Assembly: GCA_964604685.1 (NCBI GenBank)
Contig: CAZRZS010000002.1
Coordinates: 5,051 to 37,791 of the forward strand
DNA length: 32,741 nucleotides
Reading direction: 5' to 3'
DNA from: an uncultured Gammaproteobacteria bacterium
GTDB taxonomy: Bacteria > Patescibacteriota > Patescibacteriia > Magasanikbacterales > UBA922
Positions within the stretch are counted from its first letter, which is position 1. Each line of letters begins with the position of its first letter. The position numbers were made by a program, and so were the translations under genes. The notes under the pieces are model-generated. The model made no database searches. It was not told the origin of the DNA and saw nothing but the letters and a program-made list of their open reading frames with translations. Of this stretch, positions 5,027 through 6,433 are shown in pieces.

Positions 5027-6433
5027 ATGACATTTTTTGAAATCACCCACCAAGACAAAAACTCCAAAGCTCGTACTGGAATTATTCAAACTGCCCATGG
5101 CGACATTGAGACCCCGGTTTTTATGCCGGTCGGCACGCAGGCCACTATCAAAAGTCTAGATAGTGCTGACATACATAATTTAGATACTAAAATTATTTTA
5201 GCCAATACTTATCATCTGCACTTACGTCCTGGTGAAGATTTAATTGCTAAATTTGGAGGTCTGCATCAATTCATGAATTGGCACAAGCCAATTCTAACTG
5301 ATTCCGGAGGGTTTCAGGTTTTTAGTTTAGGTTTGCAGAAAGACAAACGAAACCCCACCCCTGCCTTGCCGGCAGGCAGGCTGCCCTCCCCGGAACTTGT
5401 CCCGAGTTTCATCTCGGGAAGGGGAGGGAAAATAAGTAGTTCCTCCCCCTATGAGGGGGAGGCGAGGAGGGGGTTTGGTAATTCCTCCCCTATAAGGGGA
5501 GGGAAAATAAGTAATTCCTCCCCCTATGAGGGGGAGGCGAGGAGGGGGTTTGGTAACAATCACCTCGTCAAAATCGACGAGAACGGCGTTACCTTCCGCT
5601 CGCACTGGGACGGCTCTACCCATCGCTTCACTCCTGAAAAATCAATTAAAATCCAGCATAAACTTGGCGCTGATATTATTATGGCCTTTGACGAATGCAC
5701 GCCAGATGACGCGGAGGAAAAATACGTCAGAGAAGCAATGGAAAGAACTCATCGCTGGGCTGAAAGAAGTTTAGATTATCATAACAGCAAAAAAACTAAG
5801 CAACATCTATTTGGCATAATCCAAGGCTCTAATTACGAACAATTAAGAAAACAAAGCGCCCGTTTTATTTCCACGCTGGATTTTGACGGCATCGCGGTTG
5901 GCGGCGAATCTGTGGGCTACAACATGGTAGCGACAAAAAATATTCTGGACTGGGTTTATCCTTATTTGACAGTAAACAAACCTCATTATGCCATGGGTGT
6001 AGGTTTTTCTCCGACTGACTTGTTTGACGTAGTGGAAAGAGGCGTAGACATGTTTGATTGTGTAGCACCCACGAGGATGGCGAGAAATGGCAGTTTATTT
6101 ATTTCCCCCCTATCAGGGGGGGTAAAGGGGGGTCTGTTTAAAAAAAGACCCCTCCCAACCTCCCCTAAAAGGGGAGGAGGAAATAAATACCGCATCAATA
6201 TTTTCAATGCCCAATATCAAGATGATAAACAGCCAATTGATCCTGAATGCACTTGTAGCACTTGTCAAAATTATTCTCGCGGCTATCTACATCATCTTTT
6301 TAAAGCTGAAGAACTTTTGGCTTATAGATTATCCACTATTCACAATCTACACTTCTTTTTGAATTTAATGAAGCAAATACAGAAAGCAATTAAAAATGAT
6401 AAATTTATTAATCTTAAAAAAAATTGGGTATGA
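5027..6433 (+). CDS. tgt: Queuine/preQ1 tRNA-ribosyltransferase (bacterial TGT) with two in-frame repeat insertions
   Basis: Has [24 protein letters not shown] and [12 protein letters not shown] motifs and the zinc motif CTCSTC...YLHHL. At 468 aa it exceeds the usual length of about 375 aa. The excess matches GC-rich blocks at about 5350-5560 and 6100-6185. Confidence 0.93.
5356..5389 (+). repeat. Hairpin module B, copy in tgt
   Basis: cacccctgccttgccggcaggcaggctgccctcc, with an imperfect palindrome around gccggc. Confidence 0.88.
5384..5428 (+). repeat. Hairpin module A, copy in tgt
   Basis: ccctccccggaacttgtcccgagtttcatctcgggaaggggaggg. The outer stem ccctcccc/ggggaggg is 8 bp and the inner stem tcccgag/ctcggga is 7 bp. 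It is 45 nt long, or 15 codons. Confidence 0.9.
5440..5478 (+). repeat. Hairpin module C, tgt copy 1
   Basis: ttcctccccctatgagggggaggcgaggagggggtttgg, with an 8-bp stem cctccccc/gggggagg. Confidence 0.88.
5482..5503 (+). repeat. Short CCTCCCC-loop-GGGGAGG hairpin between the two C copies
   Basis: ttcctcccctataaggggaggg. Confidence 0.8.
5515..5553 (+). repeat. Hairpin module C, tgt copy 2 (75-bp tandem duplicate)
   Basis: Identical to 5440-5478. The wider units starting at 5426 and 5501 match except for one base. Confidence 0.9.
6105..6177 (+). repeat. Three consecutive GC-rich hairpins inside tgt (insertion 2)
   Basis: cccccc-tatca-ggggggg (6105-6122), ggggtct-N10-agacccc (6129-6152) and cctcccc-taaaa-ggggagg (6159-6177). 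Confidence 0.85.

Follow-up and report, generated by a model that had tools for sequence, protein, structure and literature searches.

What is a run of GC-rich, self-complementary codons doing in frame inside a tRNA-modifying enzyme, where did it come from, and how does the protein accommodate it? The question arises from the tgt gene of the window, the whole stretch of 32,741 nucleotides of DNA that was analysed. The source is an ultra-small groundwater bacterium. Its genome comprises 768 kb in 91 contigs at 37.5% GC, and its named relatives are Candidatus Magasanikbacteria. The gene and its neighborhood are laid out as follows (positions are those of the window unless a contig is named):

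5027–6433, plus strand: tgt (queuine/preQ1 tRNA-ribosyltransferase), the host gene, 468 aa (Pfam PF01702, E 1.8e-143; Z. mobilis TGT, E 1.8e-104)
6248–6265, plus strand: zinc motif C408-x-C410-x-x-C413, aligned with C318, C320, and C323 of Z. mobilis TGT
6430–7104, plus strand: yhhQ-type queuosine-precursor transporter (Vut_1; PF02592, E 7.5e-58), overlapping the 3′ end of tgt
7633–8703, minus strand: queA (PF02547, E 5.1e-128)

Because the alignment with Z. mobilis TGT splits into three blocks (query 10–102, 180–358, and 390–462), we read tgt as carrying two insertions, the first of 77 residues (insertion 1) and the second of about 20 (insertion 2). The catalytic Asp residues and the Cys3-His zinc ligands (D92, D222, D344, C408, C410, C413, and H439) are all retained, in columns of the homologue alignment that are invariant or nearly so, and the closest relatives of the protein, none of them from the same genus, are 71–78% identical to it. 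Since tgt overlaps the yhhQ-type gene and adjoins queA, the queuosine salvage route looks complete. We found no sign of decay in tgt, which, to judge from its sequence, is otherwise an intact and probably functional TGT. Insertion 2 sits between PTRMARNG (P348–G355) and the zinc motif, 21 residues before C408, at a point where the Z. mobilis TGT alignment is interrupted between F294 and I300. This is the location, between the PTR..ARnG segment and the zinc site, that had been proposed when the insert was first described.

The insert, its native borders, and the hairpins found in it by a scan for perfect GC-rich stems are listed here:

6092–6103, plus strand: native codons S356–I359, the β-strand ahead of the turn; the AT-rich codons are also present in relatives L016, L020, and L098
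6104–6184, plus strand: insertion 2 as translated, S360–N386; in-frame, stop-free, GC-rich, 27 codons
6105–6121: hairpin 1, stem 7, loop 3
6129–6152: hairpin 2, stem 7, loop 10
6159–6177: hairpin 3, stem 8, loop 3
6185–6202, plus strand: native codons K387–I392, the β-strand beyond the turn; K/Y-R-I-N-I is conserved in relatives, and residues 389–391 form a strand in the structural model

The peptide is rich in Gly, Pro, Lys, and Arg, with six basic residues and no acidic ones. The original prediction had quoted it exactly, its bracketed part being S360–N386 at 6104–6184, and had reported three hairpins, all of which were recovered as perfect stems. The extent that it gave, 6095–6185, does enclose the insert, but its start takes in three native codons (L-F-I). 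The AT-rich codons at the flanks are native and lie outside the element because the insert-free relatives L016, L020, and L098 have them; in the predicted fold, the AT-rich run within 6092–6103 (codons L-F-I) pairs with 6181–6189 (codons N-K-Y). The net insertion comes to 63 or 51 nt according to which native loop is taken as reference, and either length is a multiple of three. Two of the six frames of the 78-nt element are stop-free, the host frame being one of them. The 111-nt stretch folds at −55.2 kcal/mol, compared with −36.5 ± 4.2 across 200 dinucleotide-shuffled versions, none of which reached it (z −4.5), and the genome at large holds 157 GC-rich perfect hairpins, compared with 26–38 in shuffled genomes. 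The minimum-free-energy fold of insertion 2 is a single long three-tier hairpin, not three side by side, because its six arms are mutually complementary. A BLAST search with the whole 91 nt found no second full copy in the source genome, the matches being at the level of modules.

The anatomy of the insert differs from the three separate, back-to-back hairpins of the original prediction. That prediction had also overlooked that the sequence is a dispersed repeat of BoxC/triplex-motif design, that it is linked to DUF559 cassettes, and that hairpin 1 in part matches a native turn of relatives. Insertion 2 is two inverted copies of one three-block repeat, a unit of 27–33 nt in which a pyrimidine arm is followed by two purine arms, the second of them mirrored:

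6104–6133, plus strand: module X; pyrimidine arm 6104–6111, loop 6112–6114, purine arm 6115–6122, spacer, third purine arm 6126–6133
6134–6147, no strand: A-rich core of the miniature element; together with the outer arm of each module, forms hairpin 2 (6129–6152)
6148–6177, minus strand: module Y; three-block repeat that includes hairpin 3 (6159–6177)

Module X includes hairpin 1 and matches the repeat pattern given below at 6105–6133 on the plus strand; the match of Y runs from 6148 to 6174 on the minus strand, and the last arm extends the module to 6177. The blocks measure 8 + 8 + 8 nt in X (loop 3, spacer 3) and 8 + 8 + 9 nt in Y (loop 3, spacer 2), and X is identical to reverse-complemented Y at 24 of 35 positions. 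The first two blocks of X make up hairpin 1, and those of Y make up hairpin 3. Hairpin 2 is a by-product that arises when the two third blocks pair with each other around an A-rich loop of 10 nt. No direct repeat (target-site duplication) is visible at the presumed borders of the insert. The codons of hairpin 1, S-P-L-S-G-G (the first six of X), are colinear with a native S-P-x-x-G-G turn in L016 and L020, which belong to other families. By this likeness, X may in part be native, or may have arisen there by conversion of the native turn.

Both modules, and the pair as a whole, have counterparts elsewhere. X is identical at 29 of 36 positions to a module at the same TGT site in another genus (L031); that gene has X alone, and its flanking codons diverge as expected for proteins that are ∼65% identical. 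The poly-G subfamily to which X belongs is found in four other genomes too, and X is its sole copy in the source genome, as far as a fragmentary assembly can tell. The closest relative of Y abuts a DUF559 gene on contig C4 of the source genome (32 of 38 positions identical). Moreover, the 78-nt element is colinear over its whole length with a 77-nt unit that lies in another genus and a different context (L114, genome G056), with 63 of 80 columns identical (79%). The inner stem that joins X and Y is also present in L114 and flanks longer cores in L118–L122. X(+)...Y(−) ends elsewhere surround cores of ∼30–120 nt, the gene-less pairs being those of L114–L122.

We searched for the repeat with a strict pattern, CCCCT-N3-AGGGG-N7-11-GGGGT. 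In the source genome, this pattern matches X, Y, and 12 other sites, and a looser form gives 15 copies in total. Copies in the window outside insertion 2 include the following:

2461–2490 (contig C2 7511–7540), minus strand: in-frame three-block repeat copy in a UvrD/PcrA helicase gene (repeat pattern; Pfam UvrD)
5445–5474 and 5520–5549 (contig C2 10495–10524 and 10570–10599), plus strand: two three-block modules in tgt insertion 1 (repeat pattern)

Other copies in the source genome are likewise open in the frame of their host genes. The repeat is present in 55 of the 107 genomes of the host family, at 0–41 copies per genome, compared with a single match overall for a reversed-pattern control. 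Its copy number is patchy, one species having 37 copies where three more of its genus have none, and only 2 of 250 other genomes sampled evenly across the phylum contain it. Among 66 informative distinct family copies, 42 have a third block that mirrors the second perfectly, and none has a third block that repeats it directly. In Y, the third block mirrors the second with a one-base offset; X is uninformative on this point because it is all G. Judged by its letters, the block layout is the BoxC/PIT/intrastrand triplex motif design. The E. coli TMECO/BoxC consensus consists of a 9-nt pyrimidine block, N3-6, a purine block, N3, a second purine block, and G/T/C (PMC4666352). Membership of the TMECO consensus was rejected: the arms differ from the published arm CCCTCNCCC, the design being alike and the sequence not.

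The modules also keep company with a particular gene. Two of the three DUF559 (Vsr-like nuclease, PF04480) genes of the source genome are bracketed by X...Y modules:

contig C14, 8081–8530, minus strand: DUF559 ORF, 150 codons (PF04480), between X-type modules and a Y-type module
contig C4: second DUF559 gene, flanked by modules as on C14

Across the family, 18 of 43 sampled DUF559 loci have a strict module at most 200 nt away, where we estimate from copy density that chance would give ∼1–2%; the other 25 have no strict module nearby. The arrangement is X...Y at eight of the 18 loci, the opposite at two, one-sided at six, and of other kinds at two. In genome G070, a DUF559 gene is likewise flanked by the poly-G variant of X. 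Module and gene tend to occur together in the 107 family genomes (both in 44, module only in 11, gene only in 9, neither in 43; Spearman 0.74), statistics that overstate the case because the genomes are related and not independent. The only clear Y1 transposase gene of the source genome (contig C66) is flanked by different, unrelated hairpins. We did not find a DUF559 cassette with inverted triplex-type ends described in the literature, and we know of no activity of DUF559. DUF559, Vsr, and the intron homing enzyme I-Bth0305I belong to one PD-(D/E)xK clade (PMC3424549, PMC3239194), and this kinship with proven homing enzymes therefore suggests nuclease-driven spread. The DUF559 nuclease may, instead, be a passenger.

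Our favored reading, which we regard as probable, is that insertion 2 represents a small selfish DUF559 cassette in miniature, without its gene, sitting in a permissive turn of TGT and read through as a floppy loop. We take it to be gene-less cassette DNA because of its X(+)...Y(−) arrangement and its similarity to DUF559-flanking modules. The full cassette would consist of an X(+)...Y(−) pair around a DUF559 gene encoding a Vsr-like PD-(D/E)xK nuclease. Loss of that gene would leave the X and Y ends joined by an A-rich core of 12–14 nt, and the resulting miniature would occupy the β-hairpin turn that separates the PTRxARNG helix from the zinc site. Being divisible by three in length and free of stops in the frame used, the insert would be read through, adding about 17–21 floppy residues. 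Most likely, it is translated and forms a neutral Gly/Pro/Lys-rich loop. The identity and copy number of the repeat, its arrangement, its physical linkage to DUF559 genes, the intactness of tgt, and the variability of the loop are observed directly; we infer translation and neutrality, the descent from a full cassette via gene loss, and any role for the nuclease in the spread of the repeat.

To see how the protein could bear such a loop, we turned to structure prediction. In an AlphaFold2 model built with 118 homologues, the TGT core had pLDDT above 90, and insert residues 365–385 were below 50. Model strands 356–358 and 389–391 form a β-hairpin, and insertion 2 lies within its turn, which corresponds to F294–I300 in Z. 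mobilis. Superposition on a bacterial TGT crystal structure had been suggested as a check; the model core superposes on Z. mobilis TGT (1ozm) with a target-normalised TM of 0.92 and an rmsd of 1.9 Å. Across 122 homologues, the segment from PTR to NA spans 23–61 residues and most often 28; here it spans 49. The surface turn that had been suspected is thereby supported by the two strands, the low pLDDT between them, and the natural hypervariability of the loop. The turn at Z. mobilis residues 294–300 is a permissive site in TGT. The placement of insertion 2 in the tRNA-binding βE/βF loop (PMC5395182) was considered and rejected; the three-stranded sheet of TGT comprises residues 114–138 (PMC6165067) and adjoins insertion 1.

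A TGT homodimer model scored 0.85, and the best of three controls scored 0.00. Of 30 proteins solved as same-chain pairs, 20 reached this mark, as did 1 of 23 whose solved form is a single chain. Contact agreement between the dimer runs was at least 98%, with partner pLDDT at least 79. This pass may stem from the model’s memory because TGT dimers have already been solved. The predicted interface (38–47, 67–84, 398–401, and 411–435) lists neither tgt insertion, residues that are not listed being only uncertain. It is the canonical interface of bacterial TGT, formed by the loop-helix motif and the aromatic cluster (PMC5395182). An insert in the dimer interface of a decaying gene, one of the outcomes named beforehand as speaking against tolerance, was not what we saw: the predicted interface is canonical, the insert is not among its listed residues, and the gene shows no sign of decay.

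The same turn has received similar repeats in at least five other genomes. Among 104 distinct family TGT genes, six have modules in it (L001, L031, L032, L033, L038, and L039), all in the plus orientation. The modules begin 1 to 6 codons past a conserved Phe/Tyr; their junctions differ, and two reading phases are used. In a TGT tree (190 columns, quick method, deep branches largely unresolved), L032, L033, and L039 each stand beside a sister or sister group without such a module; as the tree is poorly resolved, one old X insertion with later losses may account for some lineages. Other types of GC-rich repeat are found in the turn in L029, L049, L090, and L003/L034. This repeated use is most simply explained by selection that leaves only in-frame insertions in permissive turns. 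The likeness of the repeat hairpin to native Ser-Pro...Gly-Gly codons may also aid or attract insertion; the alternative is that insertions survive only where a Pro/Gly turn already exists. A bolder reading, to which we give an outside chance, is that the DUF559 gene and its inverted triplex-type ends make up a genuine mobile element driven by the nuclease, that these ends, accompanied by the gene or not, enter DNA like their hairpin, such as Ser-Pro...Gly-Gly look-alikes, and that the basic, flexible TGT loop beside the tRNA-binding Arg residues may have been recruited to assist in holding tRNA. If this were true, look-alike targeting would explain independent, same-orientation entry into the TGT turn in at least six lineages.

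The insert could be of a quite different nature. We see a slim chance that it is a native, lineage-specific extension of the loop under selection, for instance with its basic residues holding tRNA, and that the hairpins are a side effect of the complementarity of Ser/Pro and Gly codons. Relatives in other families do have S-P-x-x-G-G-...-N-K-Y with weak natural mini-hairpins (L016, L020, L084, and L098), yet X and Y are copies of a repeat that occurs in unrelated genes and spacers of the source and 54 other family genomes, and the whole unit has its 79% identical counterpart in another genus and another context. Sister species lack the insert. The excess of basic over acidic residues (six to zero) would suit tRNA binding, as would a start only a few residues past the PTRxARNG segment, whose Arg residues presumably have a role in binding tRNA (as in the Z. 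mobilis complex), but the basic residues derive directly from the A-rich core and loops of the repeat. Absence of the insert from the mature protein, through RNA excision or ribosomal bypass of a strong hairpin, strikes us as very improbable. In favor of such a mechanism is the great stability of the RNA fold (−55 kcal/mol, z −4.5); the open frame and a net length divisible by three would, however, be needless under removal, and the other copies in the source genome are open in their host frames as well. In the insert, no take-off codon is followed by a stop or matched by a landing codon. An Rfam search of the insert returned only generic miRNA-like hairpin matches below threshold, the best at 33 bits vs. 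a cut-off of 92, and a scan of its sense strand found no terminator-like site.

We hold a decaying tgt, of which the insert would be one symptom, to be just as improbable. Two large insertions in one enzyme, of 77 and ∼20 residues, are what might prompt this view, but the gene has neither stops nor frameshifts, it keeps every invariant catalytic and zinc residue, its core is modeled with confidence, and the overlapping yhhQ and adjoining queA are intact. The protein stretch of insertion 2 is, in addition, identical in three separately recorded database sequences of different sources, and contigs from two groundwater runs, X1 (2398 nt) and X2 (903 nt), bridge 5527–6433 with 0 and 1 differences, respectively. 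This constancy across separate assemblies argues against decay and equally against an assembly artefact, a repeat-induced chimera, whose likelihood we put close to nil even though some runs’ contigs break within repeats (run X3 at 6107, for example). The contigs of four DNA runs showed no joint that skips the insert and no empty-site allele, a result of little weight because contigs drop rare variants.

Read as a gene-less miniature of a DUF559 cassette, insertion 2 illustrates how proteins of reduced genomes are reshaped by tiny selfish palindromes, and does so in a structurally well-known gene. It ties an in-frame insert to the BoxC/triplex motif design, an orphan for thirty years, and offers a further instance of the association of this design with DUF559 nuclease genes. 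It also bears on annotation: such inserts lengthen proteins, disrupt alignments, and may pass for domains or for decay.

Several known systems resemble this element in part. It shares with BoxC/PIT/TM motifs the block layout, the loops, and the trailing (G)TC, as well as being GC-rich, multicopy, dispersed, and patchy in close relatives; like BoxC/TM, it forms palindromic pairs on opposite strands. The E. coli motif is reported to be intergenic throughout, with no mobility genes found close by, and to occur also as opposite-strand palindromes in pairs (Holder et al. 2015, PMC4666352). In contrast to E. coli BoxC/TM, the copies here have arms of other sequence, lie in frame in essential genes, and in many cases flank DUF559 nuclease genes. 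With REP/REPIN sequences, it has in common short GC-rich palindromes that stand singly or as inverted pairs and that bracket a protein gene. In REP/REPIN-RAYT systems, however, the bracketed gene is a Y1 transposase, whereas here it is a Vsr-like PD-(D/E)xK nuclease; membership of these systems was rejected, the Y1 gene on contig C66 having unrelated flanking hairpins and the modules flanking DUF559 instead. As in MITEs, terminal inverted repeats surround a short core, the whole folds into a long hairpin, and the element is probably a gene-less derivative of a longer one, but no target-site duplication is visible at the presumed borders, there is no transposase, and 78 nt is unusually small.

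The cassette gene is of the same nuclease clade as Vsr-like (EDxHD) homing endonucleases such as I-Bth0305I (PMC3239194). Enzymes of that type reside in introns or inteins that splice out; no splicing element is present here, and the miniature is without the gene. Rickettsia palindromic elements (RPEs) are described as palindromic, ∼105–146 nt long, and confined to Rickettsia (Ogata et al. 2000, as cited in PMC3184786). According to that description, they share with insertion 2 a selfish palindrome in frame in housekeeping genes, a surface-loop location, and a predicted extra peptide, and they differ from it in that the present element has 78 nt, a host in the Patescibacteria, a three-block design, and an associated nuclease gene. 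Insertion 2 is a clear case, though not the earliest, of repeats of this kind that are most likely translated. It does not add a new kind of element; its contribution lies in a clear-cut anatomy and in evidence that one loop is a repeated target.

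Module Y, the inverted minus-strand module of insertion 2, is followed on its own strand by a T-run, and a terminator scan scored this site (window positions 6140–6174, minus strand) as intrinsic-terminator-like. Relative to tgt, the site lies in antisense orientation. Modules inserted behind genes could have a terminator role.

Outside the window, contig C14 of the source genome carries a tandem array of at least five modules with a period of 46–48 nt (7757–8078), which is broken by an assembly gap of N and directly adjoins the gene for the Vsr-like nuclease DUF559. Contig C66 of the same genome holds a Y1 (IS200/RAYT-type) transposase gene (2159–2503), and the GC hairpins on its flanks are its own and unrelated to the modules. 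The pattern search of the family genomes found that most copies in G053 and G054 were overlapping plus- and minus-strand matches with one hairpin in common. These overlapping copies are symmetric four-arm elements, in contrast to the three-arm form of the source genome.

In tgt of other relatives (L049, P0003, and P0110), the TGT turn that holds insertion 2 is filled by a different GC-rich repeat, which reads as H-C-E-E-R-G-T-S-D-E-A-I-like peptides. The turn is used by at least three repeat families. Alignment further revealed several tgt genes of relatives in the family (L011, L012, L013, L015, and L030) that lack any Cys-x-Cys-x-x-Cys zinc motif while the remaining protein is conserved; these may be zinc-free TGT variants.

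Insertion 1 (window positions 5309–5560) corresponds to residues 95–177, modeled with pLDDT below 50, and sits in the loop preceding the three-stranded sheet of TGT. Its position may be functionally weightier than that of insertion 2. In bacterial TGT, the βE/βF loop of this sheet aids tRNA binding (PMC5395182, PMC6165067).
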